DNA of 64,000 nucleotides. Origin: an uncultured Marinoscillum sp. Its GTDB lineage: Bacteria > Bacteroidota > Bacteroidia > Cytophagales > Cyclobacteriaceae. Under the pieces are notes generated by a model that did no database searches, was not told where the DNA came from, and saw only the letters and a program-made list of their open reading frames with translations. The position numbers and the translations under genes are program-made. How positions within the stretch are numbered: position 1 is the stretch's first letter; each line of letters opens with the position of its first letter. Below are positions 45,801 through 59,199 of the stretch, piece by piece. Location of the stretch: NCBI GenBank assembly GCA_964353015.1, contig CAYGUA010000006.1, positions 42,407-106,406 of the forward strand, read 5' to 3'.

Positions 45801-47354
45801 ATGGCTCAGGTGAGGAATTCATTGACAAAAGAAACAAAATCTCAGAATGTACATCTGAGGCATTTGCAATTGTCCGATTACCCACAGGTCAAGGAGATCA
45901 TGATCAAAGTCTATGGGAATCTCAAAAAAACATATTGGGAAAAATTGGATATCAAAAGACTTTTGGAAATCTTTCCCGAAGGTCAACTATGTATCGAGTT
46001 GGATGGAAAAATGGTGGCCGCCGCGCTTGCTATCATAGTAGATTATAAAAAATTCGGAGATAATCACACCTATAGTCAGATCACTGGCCAAGAGACATTC
46101 AGCACGCATGACCCAGAGGGAAATGTGCTTTATGGCATTGATGTATTTGTGCATCCTGATCATCGAGGACTGAGACTTGGACGCAGATTATACGATGGAC
46201 GCAAGGAACTTTGCGAAAACCTGAATTTGAAATCGATAGTTGCTGGAGGCAGAATTCCCAATTATCAAAAACACGCTAAAGAATTTACTCCAAGAGAATA
46301 TATTCAAAAAGTAAGAGACAGAGAATTGAGAGATCCAATCCTAAATTTTCAGTTGCTCAATGATTTTCACGTTAAGAAAGTTCTTAAGAACTATTTGCCA
46401 GGAGATATAGAATCAAAGGAATACGCAACACTCCTGGAATGGAATAATATTTATTATCAGGAGAAAGAAACATTGATCAATGCACCTAGAACATATGTTC
46501 GCATTGGTCTGGCTCAGCTACAAATGAGACCGCTTTCCAACATTGATGCATTGGTAGATCAGATGGAATATTTCATTGATGCTTTTGGTGATTATCAATC
46601 TGATTTCATCCTTTTTCCCGAATTTTTTAATGCCCCATTAATGGCCGAATACAATCATCTGGGGCCAGCTGATGCGATTCGTGGTTTGGCTAAGTACACT
46701 GAGCCACTAAGAGATAAGTTTATTGAATTTGCCATCTCCTACAATGTCAATATCATCACAGGATCAATGCCTGAAATGATCGAGGACAAACTTTACAACA
46801 CTTCATTCCTGTGCAGACGTGACGGATCATGGGAAAGCACATCCAAAATTCATATCACACCAGGAGAAAAAAGTGCGTGGGGAATGTCTGGCGGTGACAA
46901 GGTGAAAGTTTTTGATACCGACTCAGGCAAAATTGGAATATTGATCTGTTATGATGTGGAGTTTCCGGAATTATCGCGTTTGTATGCAGAACAAGGCATG
47001 CAGATCCTTTTTGTTCCTTTTCTCACAGACACTCAAAATGGCTACAACAGAGTAAGATATTGTGCACAAGCCAGAGCGATCGAAAATGAATGTTATGTTG
47101 CCATCGCAGGTTGTGTTGGTAATCTCCCAAGAGTCAACAACATGGACATTCAGTATGCACAAAGTGCCATATTCACTCCATCAGATTTCGCTTTTCCTAC
47201 GAACGCTATCAAATCAGAAGCTACTGCCAATTCGGAAATGACTGTTATTGGTGATATTGATTTGGAATTATTGAAAGAACTTCATGAATTTGGAAGTGTA
47301 AGAAACCTGAAAGACCGAAGATTAGATCTGTATCAAATCAAATTGAAGAGTTGA
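45801..47354 (+). CDS. Bifunctional GNAT acetyltransferase / carbon-nitrogen hydrolase (nitrilase superfamily) fusion
   Basis: N-terminal GNAT (HPDHRGLRLGRRLY). C-terminal CN-hydrolase with the catalytic Cys context GILICYDVEFPE. Confidence 0.85.
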   Translation: MAQVRNSLTKETKSQNVHLRHLQLSDYPQVKEIMIKVYGNLKKTYWEKLDIKRLLEIFPEGQLCIELDGKMVAAALAIIVDYKKFGDNHTYSQITGQETFSTHDPEGNVLYGIDVFVHPDHRGLRLGRRLYDGRKELCENLNLKSIVAGGRIPNYQKHAKEFTPREYIQKVRDRELRDPILNFQLLNDFHVKKVLKNYLPGDIESKEYATLLEWNNIYYQEKETLINAPRTYVRIGLAQLQMRPLSNIDALVDQMEYFIDAFGDYQSDFILFPEFFNAPLMAEYNHLGPADAIRGLAKYTEPLRDKFIEFAISYNVNIITGSMPEMIEDKLYNTSFLCRRDGSWESTSKIHITPGEKSAWGMSGGDKVKVFDTDSGKIGILICYDVEFPELSRLYAEQGMQILFVPFLTDTQNGYNRVRYCAQARAIENECYVAIAGCVGNLPRVNNMDIQYAQSAIFTPSDFAFPTNAIKSEATANSEMTVIGDIDLELLKELHEFGSVRNLKDRRLDLYQIKLKS

Positions 47355-51802: not shown

Positions 51803-54076
51803 ATGGCAAGTGAAGATCAGGCATTTTATCTGGAGGAGTTAAATCCCCCACAAAAAGAAGGAGTAATAAACACGGAAGGACCAACAATGCTTATAGCTGG
51901 AGCAGGTTCTGGAAAAACCCGTGTTTTGACTTACAGAATCGCACATCTGATCAGACATCACAAGGTAGATCCTTTCAATATCATGGCGCTAACATTTACA
52001 AACAAAGCAGCCAAAGAAATGCGAAACAGGATTGAGTCGATCGTAGGTGGAGAAGCCAGAAATCTGTGGATGGGTACATTTCACTCTGTTTTTGCAAGAA
52101 TATTGAGATCTGAAGCTGGCAGACTGGGCTACCCGAGCAACTTCACCATTTATGATACGGATGACTCCAAAACCTTGATCAAGCAGATAGTAAAAGAACT
52201 CAATCTGGATGACAAACTTTACAAAACGAACCTGGTGTACAACAGGATTTCTGCTGCTAAAAATAGATTGGTTTCATGGCAGGAATATATGCGTGATCCG
52301 ATCTACGAAGAGGATGATGCCGCCAACCGCCGACCTGAAATGGGTAAGCTTTATAAAATTTACTCTCAAAGATGTTTCCAGGCAGATGCCATGGATTTTG
52401 ATGACTTGCTTTATCAAACGAATATTTTGTTTCGGGATCATGTAGATGTACTCAACAAATACCAGCATCGCTTTCATTATCTATTAATCGACGAGTTTCA
52501 GGATACAAATATTTCACAATATGTGATCGCCAGAAAACTAGCTGCGGTTCGACAAAATATTGCTGTGGTTGGTGACGATGCACAGAGTATTTACGCTTTT
52601 CGTGGAGCTGACATCCAAAATATTTTGAATTTTGAGCGGGATTATCCTGATCTCAAAATCATCAAACTAGAGCAAAATTACAGATCCACTAAGACCATTG
52701 TGGAAGCTGCAAATTCGGTGATAAATAAAAACACAGCGCAACTCAAAAAAAGCGTCTGGACAAGCAATGAAGATGGTGAACTCATTGAATTGATCAAAGC
52801 TACCACGGATAATGAAGAAGGAAAATTAGTCGCCTCCTCCATTTTCGAAACCAAAATGAAAAATCAGGCTGGTAATAATGAATTTGCCATTCTTTATAGA
52901 ACAAACAGCCAATCAAGAGCGATGGAAGAAGCCTTGAGAAGAAATAATCTTAAGTATAGAGTAGTGGGTGGGTTGTCTTTTTATCAAAGGAAAGAAATCA
53001 AAGATTTGATTGGCTATCTGAGATTCATTGTGAATCCAAATGATGAGCAAGCCATGCGCCGAATCATCAATTTGCCCAAAAGGGGAATAGGACCTGGAAC
53101 TATCGAAAAAATGGTAATTGCTGCAAATGAAGAAAATAAATCTTTAGGTGAAATTCTTAATAGAGCTACCTCTTTTGTAGGTGGGCGTGGCGGAACGCAA
53201 GTAGAAAATTTTGCAGCATTGATCAAAAGTTTCAGACTGACAAATGAGAAAAAAGATGCCTACGAAACAGCTGCACATGTCGCCAAAACTTCCGGCTTGC
53301 TCAAGGAACTCTATGAAGATAAAACCATAGAAGGCCTAAGCCGGTATGAAAATGTGCAGGAACTTCTGAATGCAATTAAGGAATTTACCGATGATGCGGA
53401 GCGGGAAGACAAAAGCCTGAGTGCTTTCTTACAAGAAGTAACCTTACTGACTGACGAGGATCGATCTGAAAATCCAGATGAGGCCATCACTTTGATGACG
53501 ATACATAGCTCCAAAGGATTGGAATTTAATTATGTCTATATCGTAGGCATGGAAGAGGAATTATTTCCTTCGCAAATGATGCTCAGCAGTCGTGCTGATC
53601 TGGAGGAGGAAAGAAGACTTTTCTATGTCGCCATTACCAGAGCCAAAAAGAAAATCAACATGAGCTATGCGCTAAGTCGATACAGATTTGGCACGCTTCG
53701 CAATTGCGAACCGAGTAGATTTTTGGAAGAAGTAGATGCGCAATACATCAAAATCAATAAAAAATTCAGCACTACAGCTCCGCTCAGTTCAGCGGATAGC
53801 TATATCACCAAAAACTTTGTCAATAACCTGAAAAAGGACAAAGTGAACAGGCAATTTGCCTCAACTCCCGATCATAAGCCTAGTGCTGATTTCAAACCAT
53901 CTGATACGTCCACACTCACCGCAGGGATGAAAGTAGAACATCCAAAATTTGGTTTTGGATCAGTGAGCCAAATAGATGAGGATGGAGCCAACCGTAAGGC
54001 CAAAGTGAATTTTGATTCCGCTGGTGAAAAAACCTTACTACTCAGTTTTGCCAAGTTGCGAATCATAGAAGAATAA
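51803..54076 (+). CDS. uvrD: ATP-dependent DNA helicase, UvrD/PcrA/Rep family
   Basis: Walker A AGAGSGKT, motif II DEFQDTN, QNYRS and TIHSSKGLEF. The C-terminal small beta-domain (GMKVEHPKFGFGSV) is typical of housekeeping PcrA/UvrD. Confidence 0.92.
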   Translation: MASEDQAFYLEELNPPQKEGVINTEGPTMLIAGAGSGKTRVLTYRIAHLIRHHKVDPFNIMALTFTNKAAKEMRNRIESIVGGEARNLWMGTFHSVFARILRSEAGRLGYPSNFTIYDTDDSKTLIKQIVKELNLDDKLYKTNLVYNRISAAKNRLVSWQEYMRDPIYEEDDAANRRPEMGKLYKIYSQRCFQADAMDFDDLLYQTNILFRDHVDVLNKYQHRFHYLLIDEFQDTNISQYVIARKLAAVRQNIAVVGDDAQSIYAFRGADIQNILNFERDYPDLKIIKLEQNYRSTKTIVEAANSVINKNTAQLKKSVWTSNEDGELIELIKATTDNEEGKLVASSIFETKMKNQAGNNEFAILYRTNSQSRAMEEALRRNNLKYRVVGGLSFYQRKEIKDLIGYLRFIVNPNDEQAMRRIINLPKRGIGPGTIEKMVIAANEENKSLGEILNRATSFVGGRGGTQVENFAALIKSFRLTNEKKDAYETAAHVAKTSGLLKELYEDKTIEGLSRYENVQELLNAIKEFTDDAEREDKSLSAFLQEVTLLTDEDRSENPDEAITLMTIHSSKGLEFNYVYIVGMEEELFPSQMMLSSRADLEEERRLFYVAITRAKKKINMSYALSRYRFGTLRNCEPSRFLEEVDAQYIKINKKFSTTAPLSSADSYITKNFVNNLKKDKVNRQFASTPDHKPSADFKPSDTSTLTAGMKVEHPKFGFGSVSQIDEDGANRKAKVNFDSAGEKTLLLSFAKLRIIEE

Positions 54077-54201
54077 GTTTGATTTGAATTTAATATTTCT
54101 CATATTGAAAATTCAAGGTATTTCAATAAATTGAATTTTTATTACTATTTCATTCAATATAATTAACATATCATTGAATGAAAAGCAATATTTTATTCTA
54201 T

Positions 54202-54235
54202 AATTGCAAATATTTACAATTAAATATTTGCAATT
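54202..54235. promoter_or_regulatory. Perfect 15-bp-arm inverted repeat abutting the GTG start of the cNMP-binding acyltransferase gene
   Basis: AATTGCAAATATTTA-caat-TAAATATTTGCAATT occupies 54202-54235. The next nucleotide begins the GTG start codon at 54236. It could be an operator or an mRNA 5' hairpin; its function is not established. Confidence 0.5.
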
Positions 54236-56197
54236 GTGAAGCTACCCGAATTTGAACTTCTTGCTCCTGTTTACGACGAGGCTCACGAAATATTTCTCAA
54301 TCAGGGAGACATACTTACGGAGCAATTCGCCAAGGCGGATTATTTCTATTTTCTGATTGAAGGAGAAGTCAGTTTTTTCCTAAATGTCGAAGAAGGACTT
54401 GAAGAACTTCAGGTTGGCAATACAAATGAACCAATGACTCCCATTGGCTGGAGTGGACTTATTTCCCCAAACAGATATGCTTCAACATCAAAAATATCTT
54501 CTACAACAGCCAAGCTTTTGTGTTGGGAGTTTTCAGCACTGGAAGAAAAACTCAAGGACAATGATCTCAGCAATGCATTGATCAAACTTATTTGCTCAAG
54601 ATGTACCTTTCTGATTAGAGAAGCCATTGATTTGCTGAGTTCTTTTTCACCAAACATAACAGGAGAACAGGCGCTTGTTTCTCTGGAAGAATTTCAAAAT
54701 ACACGACTACCTGAAGAACAGGATATTGTTCAATTCTTAAGAAAATCTCCATTTTTCGAAATCTTCGAAGAAGATCAGCTGGAATTCCTCGCGAGACATG
54801 TAGAAAGACGTCAATTCCGAGTGAACGATACTGTATACGAGCAGGAAAATATGATCGAAGGGATTTATATATTAGTTTCTGGGAAAATCACTTTCACATA
54901 CACTGATCCGCAAGACAAGACAATCGGATTTCGAAATATGAATACTCCTGGATTCATGGTAGGATGGACTGCTTCAATCGGAGCAAAAACCCTCATGAAC
55001 GCCACCGCATTACAGGAATCTGTTTTGTATTACATACCAACAACCGCCCTACTGTGGATTTCGAACCGTGATTCCAATTTCGCAAGAGAGTTTCATTACA
55101 GATTGCTTTGGTTGATAGGGCATCAACTTCAGGCGATCCGGACGCGATTCATTTCGCTAAAATTCAACAGAGAAATCATAGCCATCAGCAATCTGATAGA
55201 GCAAAACAGTACAAATTTAGATTTGTGGTCCCCTTTGCATAAAGTGCCACATTTACTTCAAAACAAACTCACCATAGAAAATGCTGTGGATATTCTCACC
55301 AAGCTGAAGCAAGATGGAGATGCGCTGGAAAGAAACATTTCTTCCCTTTGCCTTGACACCATGAATGAGGTGACTAAAGAGTTGAAATTTTATTCCGGCC
55401 TGGTTGGCGTATATCAGTCAGTAGTAAAGCAGCCAGAAAATAAGCCTGCAGATGAAGTGAGAAAAATCTGTGCTGAAAATTTTTCCAAAGTATTCGAAAA
55501 TACATCTACAATAATTTCCGGCTGGTCAAACCTGCCAGACGAACCTGGTCACATATTCATTTATAACCATCTGAGAAATCATCCATACAACACCTTACCA
55601 AACAATTTTCAAATAACTCTGGATTCTCATTTCATCAGTTCGGAAATCCTTTATAAAAAATATGGTGATCCGGGAATTAGAATTGTGAGGATTGGGCGAG
55701 GCGGTGAGTACGCACATCAGGATTATTATCAGAGACTTGGACATATCGATGTTTACACCAATGAATCTGATCCAAAAACCAATACAAAAGAATATCGTGA
55801 TGAGAAAAGAAAGGAATTTTACGATTTCGCGCAATCGTATTTAAGGAATAAAAACAATTTGTTGATCAGTCCTGAAGGCACCTCTTTTAGCACGGAAGAA
55901 TCTCCGGGAGCCTTTAAATCCGGGGCTTTTAGGCTCGCCTTGAATTGCAATCCTGAGCCACTCATCGTTCCCATATCCATTGCTAACTTTGATAAGAGGG
56001 TAAGGAAAAATACTTTTTCAGTAATTATCAACAAACCATTTAAAGTAAGCGAGTACATCAAAGACACACAAAGCAAAACCGACATGAAAATTTTCCTCAA
56101 GGATCTAAGAAAAAAATACTCCGACTATGTGGGAGAAGCGGTTTTGCAATCAACCGAACAAATTAAAAAGTCCGCCAATGGAAGAACAGGGGTTTGA
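54236..56197 (+). CDS. Fusion protein: two cyclic-nucleotide-binding-like domains plus a helical linker plus a lysophospholipid acyltransferase (PlsC/LPLAT-like) domain
   Basis: cNMP-type beta-barrel patterns occur at about aa 1-115 (GDILTEQFAKADYFYFLIEGEVSF...PIGWSGLISPNRYASTS) and about aa 165-285 (SPFFEIFEEDQLEFLARH...IYILVSGKITF). LPLAT motifs occur at aa 444 (YNH), 546 (SPEGTS), 560 (FKSGAFRLA) and 575 (PLIVPISI). There is a GTG start and no in-frame ATG until residue 67. Confidence 0.7.
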   Translation: MKLPEFELLAPVYDEAHEIFLNQGDILTEQFAKADYFYFLIEGEVSFFLNVEEGLEELQVGNTNEPMTPIGWSGLISPNRYASTSKISSTTAKLLCWEFSALEEKLKDNDLSNALIKLICSRCTFLIREAIDLLSSFSPNITGEQALVSLEEFQNTRLPEEQDIVQFLRKSPFFEIFEEDQLEFLARHVERRQFRVNDTVYEQENMIEGIYILVSGKITFTYTDPQDKTIGFRNMNTPGFMVGWTASIGAKTLMNATALQESVLYYIPTTALLWISNRDSNFAREFHYRLLWLIGHQLQAIRTRFISLKFNREIIAISNLIEQNSTNLDLWSPLHKVPHLLQNKLTIENAVDILTKLKQDGDALERNISSLCLDTMNEVTKELKFYSGLVGVYQSVVKQPENKPADEVRKICAENFSKVFENTSTIISGWSNLPDEPGHIFIYNHLRNHPYNTLPNNFQITLDSHFISSEILYKKYGDPGIRIVRIGRGGEYAHQDYYQRLGHIDVYTNESDPKTNTKEYRDEKRKEFYDFAQSYLRNKNNLLISPEGTSFSTEESPGAFKSGAFRLALNCNPEPLIVPISIANFDKRVRKNTFSVIINKPFKVSEYIKDTQSKTDMKIFLKDLRKKYSDYVGEAVLQSTEQIKKSANGRTGV

Positions 56198-56792
56198 TCC
56201 AAATATGTTTGAAGAAGAAATAGCCGCATTAGAGAAAAAAATAGCGAGCTGGCCCTCATTTGATCAACTGGTCATATTTTATGGAAGTTCATCTTTCAGA
56301 CTTTGGGACACAATAGAAGAGGATCTTGCTCCATTGAATGTACTGAACCTTGGGTTCGGAGGATCATCTTTTAGCTGGTGCATTCATTATTTCAGCAGAC
56401 TGCTTGGGGTGATCCCAAAGGCTTCTCACATTGTATTTTATTGCGGCGACAATGATTTGGATAATGGATTATCTCCTGAGAATGTGATGAAAAAATTCAG
56501 AAAATTGCTTGAGATTACCAGAGATGATTTTCTCACTACTCCCATTTCAGTACTAACAATCAAGCCTAGCCCCTCACGCACCTATCTTCAATCGAAAATC
56601 AAACTTACCAACGATCTGATCAGAAAAGATTTGATTGGACTTCCGAAAGCTTATCAAATAAATATTTTCGATTCAATGCTCAACGAAAGAGGTGTGGCCA
56701 GACCTGAGCTATATTCGGAGGATGAGCTTCACATGAATGAGAAGGGTTATAAAATCTGGAAGGGCATCATTCGCAGACATTTTGGTGTCTAA
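56178..56792 (+). CDS. SGNH/GDSL-family hydrolase (esterase/lipase-like)
   Basis: Block I VIFYGSSSF, block III YCGDNDL and block V EDELHMNEKGY. ATG 56178 overlaps the upstream stop by 20 nt. ATG 56205, just after the stop, is an alternative start. The listed start at 56127 is probably too far upstream. Confidence 0.8.
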   Translation: MEEQGFDPNMFEEEIAALEKKIASWPSFDQLVIFYGSSSFRLWDTIEEDLAPLNVLNLGFGGSSFSWCIHYFSRLLGVIPKASHIVFYCGDNDLDNGLSPENVMKKFRKLLEITRDDFLTTPISVLTIKPSPSRTYLQSKIKLTNDLIRKDLIGLPKAYQINIFDSMLNERGVARPELYSEDELHMNEKGYKIWKGIIRRHFGV

Positions 56793-56794
56793 AG

Positions 56795-57511
56795 TCACTT
56801 AGCTAAGACATTCCTCTTTTCTTGATAGCCTAAGACTTTATCGCTATCTCCCAAATTTTGTGACACAACAATCAGGTCATCAAGGCATTCAGAACAATCA
56901 TTTTTTAATTTAAACGCCAAATCAAGATAACGGGCAGCTGCTCTGTAATTAGCTATTTTCCTGGTTTCATCCGATTGGGAATACAAATCACCAAGCGCTA
57001 AATAAGTAATACCCAACAAAAAATTTACTTCAAAATCTTCTTTAATAACCTGAGCGGCATTGAGATGATTGATGGCTCGATTATAATAATTGATTTTGAC
57101 AGGTACATCAGTCGTCACACGTGCTATTTCTAAAGCCTCCTCAGATGCTGCAAGCAATCCTTCAAACAATTCGGAGAGTTCGTTTGTAGCTCTTTCCGAC
57201 CAAGATTCTAATTCAAAAGATTTAACTTTTATTAGATCATTGTATGCACTCAAAAATGGATTTGCAGGCAATTGCTCAGATTTCACACCAGAAATTGCTA
57301 ATTTTTTCATTGCAATGGCTCTGTAAAAATAAGCTTTGGCACTTTCATCTGCATTTAATGTTTCTTCATCTTCAAGTGCAGTATTAATATCACGAATGGT
57401 ACGCTCATATGCTCCTCCTGAAAATGCAATTATCGCACTTGAAATGTACCTTTGCTGTGCACTTGAAATGCTACAAATTAAAGTGAGTGTTATGTATAAT
57501 ATTCCCTTCAT
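56795..57511 (-). CDS. Secreted TPR-like helical-repeat hypothetical protein
   Basis: Signal peptide from the ATG at 57511 (MKGILYITLTLICSISSAQQ). Helical-repeat composition with AxxYY/AL patterns. Confidence 0.55.
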   Translation of the reverse strand: MKGILYITLTLICSISSAQQRYISSAIIAFSGGAYERTIRDINTALEDEETLNADESAKAYFYRAIAMKKLAISGVKSEQLPANPFLSAYNDLIKVKSFELESWSERATNELSELFEGLLAASEEALEIARVTTDVPVKINYYNRAINHLNAAQVIKEDFEVNFLLGITYLALGDLYSQSDETRKIANYRAAARYLDLAFKLKNDCSECLDDLIVVSQNLGDSDKVLGYQEKRNVLAK

Positions 57512-57564
57512 CACCGCTAGTCTCAATTGCAAAACTACAACCTATTGAAAGCAATAAACCTATA

Positions 57565-59199
57565 ATGGCTGAAAAAGAAACGATTGTACTACCTCCCAAA
57601 TATTATCTGGACTACTTCCGTTTCCTGATCGAATTTGTATGTGACAAATCTGGCCATCTGTTAGGTGAGCCTGGCGAAAACTTTATTCGTGATTTTAATA
57701 ATCTAGATGAAGATGCTCAATGCCTGATGATGCGAATGGCCAACCGAAAAGGTGAGTTTTTCAGATTATCTAAACTGAGCTATGAAGAAATAGGCAACAT
57801 CGGCCAGGCTACAGAGACACTTGTGGAAGCTGGATTCGTTTCCCTTGATCCACCGCAGGATCACCGGCTTTTTCATTTATTTACAAAAGGGGAGCTTTCA
57901 AATCTTTTCCCCGAAAGGAACATAAAAATCAAGAAAAAAGAAGAAGTACTGCTTGAATTCGCGGAGGATTCCAGACATGAAGAATACCTGAAATTACAAT
58001 CACTGGACACAATCATAACTTTTCTAAGACAGGAAGAAATTGAATTTGTTAAGCTGCTTTTTTTCGGACATTCTCATGGAATGATGACCGAATTTGTCAT
58101 CAGAGATATTGGAAATATCAAACTTGAAAATCTTGACGGCCACAATTTTACACCTTGGTTTGATAGTCATGAAGAGGCCAAAGCCATTTTTGAATTATCA
58201 AAAATTAATCGTGCCATTTACGAATTCATTCAAATAGGGCTGCCCGAAGATTTGCTTGAAATCATCGCACCGATCAACTGGAGCAGCATGATCAACTTCC
58301 GCAATGCGCGCAAACAAGGAGACAAACTGATGTTGCGGCTGGGAGAATATTTTGAAAAGACGGGTTTTTTGGAAGAGGCGTTGAATTATTTTGCTTTAGC
58401 CAGGAAGCATCCAAGTAGGGAGAGGCAAATCAGAATCTATCAAAAGCTTGGTAGGACACAAGAAGCGATAGAGCTAGCCGAATTTGTCTTCGAAAACCCA
58501 TATAATGCCAGTGAAAAGATTTTCGCAAAGGATTTTATAGCAAAATCTGGCACTCGTAATTTGCGAAGCACAACAACCAGAATCAAAAACAGTAATGAAA
58601 TAACAGTAAGCGGAGGTGGTCTAAAGAGAGTGGAAGAAAAAGCACTCGAACACTTCGAAGCTTTAGGTTTCCAAGGCATTCATTCAGAAAATTATCTCTG
58701 GCGCGCCATATTCGGTTTGATGTTTTGGGATGAATTATTTGATGCCAATTTAGCAGCATTTCATCATCCACTGCAGCGCGCACCTTCGGACCTTTATTCA
58801 ACAGGTTTTTATGAATCAAGAAAGGAGATTTTGATTAGAAGAACCAAATCATTTCATTCCAAAAATCAACTTCTGACTCATTTGATTCAGACGTATAAAT
58901 CCAAAGAAAACATCAACAATCCACTCGTCTCGTGGCATGAATCGCTCCTTCCAGCTATTACTGCCTGCATACCATTATTGCCGCTAGCTGGCTTGAAAAA
59001 AGTGATGTTTGAAATTGCTAAAAATGTAAAAGACAACAGCACGGGATTCCCTGATCTTTTTATTTGGACTGAAGACAGTTATCATTTCTACGAAATAAAA
59101 TCACCGAACGATCACCTCTCTTCACAACAACTTTTTTGGTTGGACTTCTTCGAAGAACAGAAAATCAAATCTGATATTCTTAGAGTAAATTACGAGTAA
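57565..59199 (+). CDS. FAN1-like structure-specific nuclease (SAP/TPR-like region plus C-terminal VRR-NUC domain)
   Basis: The N-terminal PPKYYLDYFRFLIEFV...AQCLMMRMANRKGEFFRLSKLSYEEIG parallels the N-terminus of bacterial FAN1 as I recall it from Pseudomonas. The central ENYLWRAIFGLMFWDELFDA...FHHPLQRAPSDLYS block also parallels it. C-terminal PD-(D/E)xK/VRR-NUC motif GFPDLFIW...YHFYEIKSPNDHLSSQQLFWL. The start was moved to the ATG at 57565. Confidence 0.8.
   Translation: MAEKETIVLPPKYYLDYFRFLIEFVCDKSGHLLGEPGENFIRDFNNLDEDAQCLMMRMANRKGEFFRLSKLSYEEIGNIGQATETLVEAGFVSLDPPQDHRLFHLFTKGELSNLFPERNIKIKKKEEVLLEFAEDSRHEEYLKLQSLDTIITFLRQEEIEFVKLLFFGHSHGMMTEFVIRDIGNIKLENLDGHNFTPWFDSHEEAKAIFELSKINRAIYEFIQIGLPEDLLEIIAPINWSSMINFRNARKQGDKLMLRLGEYFEKTGFLEEALNYFALARKHPSRERQIRIYQKLGRTQEAIELAEFVFENPYNASEKIFAKDFIAKSGTRNLRSTTTRIKNSNEITVSGGGLKRVEEKALEHFEALGFQGIHSENYLWRAIFGLMFWDELFDANLAAFHHPLQRAPSDLYSTGFYESRKEILIRRTKSFHSKNQLLTHLIQTYKSKENINNPLVSWHESLLPAITACIPLLPLAGLKKVMFEIAKNVKDNSTGFPDLFIWTEDSYHFYEIKSPNDHLSSQQLFWLDFFEEQKIKSDILRVNYE

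Follow-up and report, generated by a model that had tools for sequence, protein, structure and literature searches.

LPLAT-fold acyltransferase with tandem CAP/CNB domains and its SGNH esterase partner in Marinoscillum and other bacteria

Results

We analysed a pair of overlapping genes in a 64,000-nucleotide (nt) stretch of DNA from an uncultured Marinoscillum sp. (GCA_964353015.1, contig CAYGUA010000006.1, positions 42,407 to 106,406 of the forward strand; this whole stretch is called the window, and coordinates are counted from its first letter). The first gene (54236..56197, + strand) encodes a protein of 653 amino acids (aa) in which two CAP-type cyclic nucleotide-binding (CNB) domains precede a helical domain and an acyltransferase domain of the lysophospholipid acyltransferase (LPLAT) fold; the second (56178..56792, + strand) encodes a 204-aa, predicted cytoplasmic esterase of the SGNH family. 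The strongest new result is the Rosetta-stone evidence from relatives of these genes, in which the two enzymes are adjacent or fused, suggesting that acyltransferase and esterase form one functional unit across phyla. We propose, with a probability of about 0.5, that the locus is a cytoplasmic deacylation/reacylation module whose acyltransferase arm is controlled by a ligand bound at the first CNB domain (CNB-A).

Linkage of the acyltransferase to the SGNH esterase

Searching one genome per species, we identified relatives of the acyltransferase in 369 genomes and compared gene neighbourhoods at the best 80 loci. These loci belong to Bacteroidota (Cyclobacteriaceae, Marinoscillum, Jiulongibacter, Arcticibacterium), Acidobacteriota (Vicinamibacterales), Thermodesulfobacteriota / Candidatus Dadabacteria, Polyangiaceae and others. 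As indicated by tblastn, an SGNH ortholog lies directly downstream or is fused in frame at 61 of the 80 loci (13 of the 61 being fusions), and this linkage spans Bacteroidota, Thermodesulfobacteriota/Dadabacteria and others. A first-pass annotation of the window, made from the sequence alone, had suggested translational coupling of the two genes and had proposed profiling their co-occurrence. The linkage now found goes beyond coupling: it is conserved in several phyla, and fusions occur both with and without sensor domains. Clustering of the neighbouring open reading frames (ORFs) of the 80 loci showed that, besides the SGNH gene, no gene is conserved beyond single clades; no cyclase was found among them.

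The family occurs in several architectures. At the locus described here, a protein with two CNB domains and the acyltransferase domain is accompanied by a separate SGNH gene; elsewhere, the same domains and the SGNH domain are joined in single proteins of 880-911 aa. A form of about 500 aa possesses a single CNB domain and has a GDSL gene directly downstream (locus L081), and CNB-less fusions of acyltransferase and SGNH domains (451-486 aa) form clusters of up to 290 members. One or two N-terminal CAP/CNB domains are present on the acyltransferase in most lineages. Because the architectures vary in this way, the acyltransferase-esterase pair appears to be the conserved unit and the CNB domains a regulatory addition to it.

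The CNB-less minimal fusions (P0171, P0175, P0180, P0188, P0194 and P0204) carry the same variant acyltransferase domain together with the SGNH domain. Metagenomes contain many of them (clusters of 35 and 290 members), and one was found in a metagenome-assembled genome of Flavobacteriaceae. Missing from these proteins are the greater part of the helical domain and the second His of 'NHxxNH'. At about 10 Vicinamibacterales loci with no SGNH gene (e.g. L045:4810-5826, - strand), a divergently oriented gene of the AXE1 family (acetyl xylan esterase / cephalosporin-C deacetylase) was seen just upstream of the acyltransferase gene, and a TonB-dependent receptor gene downstream. The AXE1 gene might be a non-orthologous replacement of the esterase, or might only reflect synteny within the clade.

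The acyltransferase gene is found across whole genera such as Marinoscillum. Cultured carriers include Marinoscillum furvescens DSM 4134, M. pacificum, M. luteum KCTC 23939, Jiulongibacter sediminis, Arcticibacterium luteifluviistationis and Marinilongibacter aquaticus. In databases, members are labelled 'cyclic nucleotide-binding domain-containing protein', '1-acyl-sn-glycerol-3-phosphate acyltransferase' or 'lysophospholipase L1-like esterase'.

Domain architecture of the 653-aa protein

A full AlphaFold2 model of the 653-aa protein was built on 102 homologs (pLDDT 89.4, pTM 0.81). From the N-terminus, it consists of a CAP-type beta barrel, CNB-A (54236..54640, aa 1-135; also recognised by Pfam and Foldseek); a disordered linker (aa 144-157); a second barrel, CNB-B, with a long C-helix at aa 280-310 (54713..55165, aa 160-310; also recognised by Pfam); a conserved five-helix domain (55172..55501, aa 313-422); an alpha/beta domain of the LPLAT/AGPAT fold (55502..56074, aa 423-613), identified by Pfam, Foldseek and alignments; and a long C-terminal helix (56075..56179, aa 614-648), which runs into the SGNH linker in fused homologs. 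All of these are encoded on the + strand. The region previously described as a helical linker corresponds to the C-helix of CNB-B (280-310) and the five-helix domain (313-422), the latter in the position of the helical bundle of soluble glycerol-3-phosphate acyltransferase (GPAT), and in the model the C-helix is continuous with the helical domain.

Pfam recognised the cNMP_binding domain (PF00027) twice (E 7e-16) and Acyltransferase (PF01553) once (E 8e-7, 29.4 bits vs a cut-off of 23 bits), the latter match being limited to positions 73-131 of the 132 in the profile, that is, to motifs III-IV. With the whole model as the query, Foldseek returned only the tandem CNB regulators of PKA/PKG (E about 1e-12), including structures of the nucleoside-binding, cAMP-independent PKA-R of trypanosomes; similarly, a sequence search with the full protein against PDB gave only weak CNB matches, and full-length profiles were dominated by CNB proteins. 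A separate model of aa 313-653 (pLDDT 92.9) was needed to reveal the LPLAT fold. It matched PlsC (5KYM; E 3e-6, TMt 0.60), soluble plastid GPATs (8ia1, 1iuq and 1k30; E 9e-6 to 1e-4), human GPAT1 (8e4y; E 8e-4) and LpxM (5kn7; E 2e-3). The plastid enzymes aligned over 366-391 columns with TMq 0.39-0.48, and the significant matches were lipid acyltransferases only (PlsC, GPAT, LpxM). No signal peptide or membrane anchor was found in either the 653-aa protein or the SGNH protein, and the model has no hydrophobic terminal helix.

The two CAP/cNMP barrels and the acyltransferase domain assigned in the first-pass annotation were therefore upheld by profile searches and structure prediction, and the motifs listed there were found at Y443-N444-H445, S545-PEGTS550, F560-KSGAFRLA568, P575-LIVP579 and S77-PNRYAST84. 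A marginal Pfam match to DUF496/TmaR (aa 582-645, 55979-56170; 23.3 bits vs a cut-off of 23.2, with a weak NCBIfam counterpart) was also seen. It covers the last strand and the long C-terminal helix; we did not take it as a domain, and it probably reflects similarity in helix composition.

Catalytic motifs of the acyltransferase domain

H445 was assigned as the motif I His: in the catalytic-domain profile, 'IFIYNH' aligns with 'fIvvaNH' of T. maritima PlsC. The trimmed catalytic-domain profile reached PlsC alone in PDB (E 0.26), in an alignment anchored at 'NH'. The H445 region was also aligned with 'AIYIANH' of E. coli PlsC by MAFFT and inspection, as hhalign covered motifs III-IV only (E 1.8e-5). 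The Asp of the HX4D motif is missing. The position +5 from H445 is occupied by Pro450, and in the 102 homologs this column contains P in 73, E in 8, T in 7, V in 5 and D in 3; the doubt raised earlier about the classic NHxxxxD spacing was justified. Between His445 and Asp463 lies a mostly invariant segment of 17 residues, L-x-N-H-P-Y-N-T-L-P-N-x-F-Q-I-T-L, and the invariant Asp463 sits at the N-terminus of the next helix.

In motif III, P546-E547-G548 is invariant and aligns with FPEGTR of E. coli PlsC, the Arg being replaced with an invariant Ser550. Motif IV, E574-P575-x-I577-x-P579, aligns with 'VPIIPV' of the same enzyme. In the region expected for motif II (FxxR), the Arg of which binds the acceptor phosphate, R485 is invariant and R482 nearly so; here the alignment to PlsC is gapped and unreliable. 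The residues invariant in the 102 homologs are N444-H445, N448, T453-L454, N456, F458-Q459, L462-D463, V484-R485, E491, H494, Y497-Y498, P546-E547-G548, S550, P575, P579 and R588, of which E491, H494, Y497, Y498 and R588 have no counterpart in the PlsC motifs. Invariance of H445, D463, E547, G548, S550, P575 and P579 argues for an active enzyme rather than a pseudoenzyme.

We searched 1.84 billion representative sequences exhaustively with the catalytic-domain profile, using HMMER. Relatives amounted to 472 clusters at an E-value of 1e-3, 191 at 1e-10 and 126 at 1e-30, and canonical LPLATs were barely picked up. Judged from these sequence comparisons, the acyltransferase family forms a small branch of the LPLAT superfamily with sharp boundaries. 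The first-pass annotation had described a glycerolipid acyltransferase in a Lands-cycle-like module; the LPLAT fold was borne out, and a glycerolipid substrate and a Lands-like cycle are conjectural for this distinct, narrow offshoot, which lacks the HX4D Asp and the motif III Arg. A regular-expression search for canonical PlsC genes found none in the window or in the first 80 loci.

State of the CNB pockets

In canonical CNB domains, the phosphate-binding cassette (PBC) contains the motif FGE[LIV]AL..[PV]R, and its Arg co-evolves with a Gly between beta2 and beta3, a pair that is associated with phosphate anchoring; variation in the PBC tracks change of ligand (Kannan et al. 2007, PMC2246266). 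The PBC of CNB-A, G71-W72-S-G-x-x-x-P78-x-R80-Y-A-[TS]-T84, is non-canonical and one residue shorter than that of PKA. W72, P78, R80 and G43 are invariant in CNB-A (102 of 102 homologs). R80 is equivalent to Arg209 of PKA, which anchors the cyclic phosphate. In CNB-B, the Arg column contains N, T, H, S or C and never R (N in 79 of the 102 homologs; T252 in the protein described here). The PBC Glu, equivalent to Glu200 of PKA, which contacts the ribose 2'-OH, is replaced with Trp in both barrels (W72 in 102/102, W244 in 94/102); W244 and T252 were mapped onto the Glu and Arg positions by HMMER alignments to PKG and other CNB proteins. The beta2-beta3 Gly (Gly169 in PKA) is kept and invariant in both, as G43 and G216, positions that were mapped by inspection of the motifs E-G-E and S-G-K. 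The single-CNB form P0148 keeps Arg in its PBC.

Since R80 and G43 are kept and Glu is replaced with Trp, CNB-A has the phosphate-anchoring pair without the ribose-contacting Glu. Retention of Arg80 and its co-evolving Gly43 makes CNB-A the likely ligand site. For this site a cyclic nucleotide appears plausible from the residues retained, though a Trp in both pockets is unusual; because the PBC Glu is missing twice and CNB-B also lacks the Arg, the ligand may differ from cAMP and cGMP. By the same comparison, the CNB-B pocket is degenerate. A PBC Arg in the first domain only, with a possibly degenerate second domain, had been noticed before, and the homologs bear this out. The attribute 'cyclic-nucleotide-gated' given to the protein then fared less uniformly: the Arg/Gly pair of CNB-A speaks for it, and the Glu-to-Trp replacement in both barrels and the missing Arg of CNB-B speak against it.

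The 653-aa protein belongs to the LPLAT-fold and CAP/CNB superfamilies. It is not an ordinary member of either, since neither the canonical HX4D motif nor the Glu of the cNMP pocket was found in it.

The SGNH esterase

The SGNH protein matches Lipase_GDSL_2 (E 2e-8) and Lipase_GDSL of Pfam, both above threshold. Blocks I (G-S-S), II (G-F-G-G), III (G-D-N-D) and V (D-E-L-H) are invariant in the 61 orthologs, so that block II can be added to blocks I, III and V, which had been recognised as intact from the single sequence. Its closest solved sequence relatives are the catalytic subunits of platelet-activating factor (PAF) acetylhydrolase Ib (PAF-AH Ib; E 4e-6 over 164 residues) and the sialate O-acetylesterase 6njc. 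The SGNH partner would accordingly derive from a clade whose characterised members remove acetyl groups; its own substrate is not thereby certain. Because the esterase is closest to acetyl-specific esterases, the acyl group handled by the pair could be short.

A homolog search with the SGNH protein found 174 proteins only. Relatives at 40% identity or less are unlinked to the acyltransferase and adjoin either a MacB-type transporter and another esterase, or clusters of CTP_transf_3, split transketolase-like and aminotransferase genes. In one such cluster, which is conserved (L084-L087) and holds the nearest SGNH relatives outside the system, the SGNH relative is surrounded by genes for NTP_transf_3, an unannotated protein of 324-373 aa, a CTP_transf_3 cytidylyltransferase, a transketolase-C-like protein and an aminotransferase; in L084/L085 the CTP_transf_3 cytidylyltransferase is fused to a transketolase-N-like part. 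The gene content resembles that of a pathway for modifying sugars or phosphonates that includes an O-acetylesterase.

Gene starts, overlap and upstream palindrome

The 653-aa gene starts with GTG and stops with TGA at 56195-56197. The GTG start is backed by its position: in close homologs the ATG precedes the aligned residue by one codon, and GTG is also the start codon in the closest relative. The SGNH ORF, which is supported by its Pfam match and orthologs, has its first ATG at 56127. Homology to orthologs begins near Met18, where 'IDKNLFEQD' matches 'FDPNMFEEE' in the linker of fused proteins, which points to the ATG at 56178 as the likely start. From this start the SGNH gene overlaps the end of the upstream gene, including its stop codon, by 20 nt, which favours overlap over abutment, a point left open in the first-pass annotation.

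Immediately upstream of the GTG lies the perfect palindrome that was described with it at first reading. This inverted repeat (54202..54235, + strand) consists of 15-nt arms, AATTGCAAATATTTA (54202-54216) and TAAATATTTGCAATT (54221-54235), with 100% complementarity and a 4-nt loop, and its last base directly precedes the start codon. Transcribed into RNA, the repeat is predicted to fold at -17.8 kcal/mol (z = -6.1), and 0 of 200 shuffled sequences were equally stable. It may be an operator or a hairpin occluding the start site. Only a degenerate version of the palindrome is left in the closest relative (L001), and more distant homologs have none; it is strain-specific and lies outside the conserved system, and it may regulate the 653-aa gene in this strain. 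Matches to the palindrome arm with up to 3 mismatches numbered 20 in the window vs 12.8 +/- 3.4 expected, no regulon-like enrichment, and an Rfam scan of 52-59 kb found no riboswitch or leader RNA upstream of the 653-aa gene.

The intergenic region 54077-54235 (159 nt) is AT-rich and contains several further inverted repeats, among them 54148-54158/54173-54183 (11 nt, 100%) and 54103-54122/54125-54144 (20 nt, 80%). In close relatives the left arm of the palindrome is partly kept (ATTGCAAxTATTT-like), which could reflect a promoter element. The locus is present in marine biofilm and phycosphere metagenomes; four sequencing runs of unspecified type gave low-depth fragments without direction at the locus and yielded no usable evidence on transcription.

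Neighbouring genes in the window

The neighbours of the pair in the window include genes for a hybrid histidine kinase, a UvrD-type helicase, a TPR-like protein, a FAN1-like VRR-NUC nuclease, a glycosyltransferase, subunits of NADH dehydrogenase (nuo) and a CBS-PALP enzyme, among others. The neighbourhood is housekeeping-like and syntenic within clades.

Some other features were observed in the window. The FAN1-like nuclease gene (57487-59199, + strand; 570 aa) encodes a FAN1 HTH domain (E 2e-23) and a C-terminal VRR-NUC domain (E 8e-17). Its predicted 5' end overlaps that of the divergent 245-aa TPR-like ORF (56795-57532, - strand) by 46 nt, so that the start of one or the other probably lies further in. 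A match to RF03531 (n00280, 'C. difficile sRNA included into helicase gene') at 53575-53676 (+ strand) was below threshold (38.5 vs 65.2 bits, E 0.0012); it lies inside the UvrD/PcrA-type helicase gene and most likely represents conserved coding sequence rather than a small RNA. At 45801-47354 (+ strand), a 517-aa fusion of a GNAT acetyltransferase domain and a carbon-nitrogen hydrolase domain is encoded.

Discussion

The core of the proposed module is a distinct, narrow-family LPLAT-fold acyltransferase paired with a dedicated SGNH serine esterase. The esterase would cleave an acyl ester on an acceptor that is a lipid or resembles one, the acyl group possibly being short, such as acetyl, and the LPLAT domain would re-esterify the freed hydroxyl using an acyl-thioester donor. 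We presume that His445 is catalytic, with the invariant Asp463 standing in for the missing Asp of HX4D. CNB-A would bind a cyclic nucleotide or a related phosphorylated compound, and the degenerate CNB-B probably acts as a relay. Occupancy by the ligand would reposition the C-helix of CNB-B and, with it, the helical domain packed on the catalytic domain; this shift would switch the acyltransferase on or off relative to a constitutive esterase.

Several points weigh against this proposal. The acyltransferase has neither the Asp of HX4D nor the Arg of motif III; the PBC Glu is absent from both CNB pockets, and from CNB-B the Arg as well. No cyclase gene was found at about 36.8-63.9 kb of the window (about 17 kb upstream and about 7 kb downstream of the pair), as had already been noted for the surroundings. 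The CNB-less fusions make regulation an add-on and not an intrinsic property. No SGNH gene was present within 6 kb at 18 loci of Vicinamibacterales/Acidobacteria and 1 of Polyangiaceae, and with 19 of the 80 loci of this kind, the acyltransferase can evidently occur with no partner gene linked to it. Were the esterase and the acyltransferase to act on the same bond, the result would be a futile cycle, unless their acyl specificity or regulation differs. Full-text literature searches found no paper on the family or its architecture. The weakest parts of the interpretation are the identities of the ligand and the substrate.

It is on these two parts that alternative explanations bear. The CNB domains could respond to another ligand, or to none, and serve as dimerisation or autoinhibitory scaffolds, as suggested by CooA (haem), CprK, NtcA, the nucleoside-binding PKA-R of trypanosomes (which is among the Foldseek matches) and the CNB domains of NTE/PNPLA6. 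Replacement of the PBC Glu with Trp in practically all homologs, the Arg column of CNB-B, the shortened PBC of CNB-A, the lack of a cyclase gene nearby or conserved among the 80 loci, and the reported association of PBC variation with ligand change are all in line with this explanation. On the other hand, the invariant R80, followed by Y-A-T-T, and G43 make up a phosphate-anchoring signature, and the single-CNB form retains its Arg. Domains of the Epac type also lack the PBC Glu, yet they bind cAMP. We regard a sensor without cyclic nucleotides as somewhat unlikely, but as an explanation to be taken seriously. As to the substrate, the pair could write and erase an O-acetyl or other short-acyl group on a soluble metabolite, a sugar or a nucleotide-sugar instead of remodelling long-chain phospholipids. 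The best solved relatives of the esterase are acetyl-specific (PAF-AH Ib and 6njc), its distant relatives lie in CTP_transf_3, transketolase-like and aminotransferase clusters, an AXE1 gene adjoins the acyltransferase gene at the Vicinamibacterales loci mentioned above, neither protein has a membrane anchor or signal peptide, and the phosphate-binding Arg of motif III is missing. The significant structural neighbours of the catalytic domain, however, are all lipid acyltransferases; identity of about 25% to acetylesterases cannot give the chain length; and LPCAT-type enzymes act on lysophospholipids without the motif III Arg. To our knowledge, LPLAT-fold enzymes act almost only on lipid acceptors. 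A non-lipid or short-chain substrate is unlikely in our estimate. Both of these explanations overlap with the deacylation/reacylation module proposed here and differ from it only in the ligand or the substrate.

Combining the two questions, the module could be a second-messenger-gated switch that writes and erases a short acyl (acetyl) mark on a lipid. A ligand-activated, LPCAT-like LPLAT would write the mark, with a catalytic centre of the form HX17D instead of HX4D and a sensor pocket in which Trp takes the place of the canonical Glu, and an esterase like PAF-AH Ib would erase it; the system would be a prokaryotic counterpart of the eukaryotic PAF cycle, either independently assembled or ancestral. 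Taken as a whole, this joint scheme is quite doubtful. A role as a Pycsar/CBASS-type anti-phage effector, activated by a cyclic nucleotide to damage the membrane on infection, had been raised in the first-pass annotation, and CNB-type sensors fused to membrane- or lipid-acting effectors do occur in defence systems. In PADLOC, however, no model matched the 653-aa protein or the SGNH protein; no cyclase or defence gene is adjacent to the pair or conserved among the 80 loci; the nuo, UvrD-type helicase and glycosyltransferase genes around it and the clade-level synteny are unlike a defence island; and the gene is present throughout genera such as Marinoscillum. On the PADLOC and neighbourhood results we dropped the defence reading, which is highly improbable.

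If the deacylation/reacylation module proposed here is correct, its acyltransferase would be the first bacterial LPLAT-fold enzyme known to be controlled directly by a CAP/CNB sensor, and its family the first among LPLATs to have an esterase partner of its own, in many cases covalently attached. The module would provide a direct route from a small-molecule signal to the acyl composition of membranes or lipids without transcription. No new principle would be involved, as sensor-fused lipid enzymes (NTE, LPCAT) are known and the domains are already annotated in databases. The family lends itself to testing how LPLAT active sites cope when the HX4D Asp and the motif III Arg are lost, and it bears on the ligand accepted by a CNB pocket that has Trp instead of the ribose-contacting Glu. 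The cultured carriers make experiments feasible.

Comparison with known systems

With the PlsC/AGPAT-type LPLATs (5KYM; 1IUQ/1K30), the catalytic domain shares the alpha/beta fold, the motif I 'NH' His, the P-E-G of motif III, the Pro of motif IV and an F-K-x-G-A-F segment; like soluble plastid GPAT, it is preceded by an N-terminal helical domain. It differs from them by Pro450 at the +5 position of HX4D, the 17-residue insert between His445 and Asp463, Ser550 in place of the motif III Arg, the additional invariant residues E491, H494 and Y497-Y498, and the lack of membrane-inserting N-terminal helices. The tandem CNB domains resemble those of PKA/PKG in the two-barrel arrangement, the beta2-beta3 Gly in both barrels and the PBC Arg in the first; they are distinguished by Trp for the PBC Glu in both barrels, the absence of Arg from the second, and an acyltransferase as the output instead of a kinase-binding surface.

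In the proposed working principle, three known systems come closest. NTE/PNPLA6-7 and the bacterial cNMP-patatin proteins similarly carry tandem CNB domains, with non-canonical or unproven nucleotide binding, N-terminal to a lipid-acting enzyme, and the two systems may have lipid deacylation in common. In the Marinoscillum pair, however, the sensor-bearing enzyme has the LPLAT fold and not the patatin fold, the hydrolase is a separate SGNH protein, and there are no transmembrane segments. E. coli LplT-Aas, a bacterial Lands-like repair system, offers a possible parallel in an LPLAT-fold enzyme that re-acylates a deacylated lipid; Aas is fused to an acyl-ACP synthetase, works with a flippase, and has neither a sensor domain nor a dedicated esterase. 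A further parallel may be drawn with eukaryotic LPCAT1/2 and PAF-AH Ib, which likewise comprise an LPLAT without the motif III Arg and an SGNH esterase of the PAF-AH Ib type. LPCAT1/2 are regulated by Ca2+ through EF-hands, and so in both cases the transferase would bear a second-messenger sensor domain, a likeness offered as an analogy only. We know of no PAF production by bacteria carrying the acyltransferase-SGNH pair. The sensor is a CNB domain here and an EF-hand in the eukaryotic enzymes, and the two activities, which are not joined in eukaryotes, are here linked or fused.

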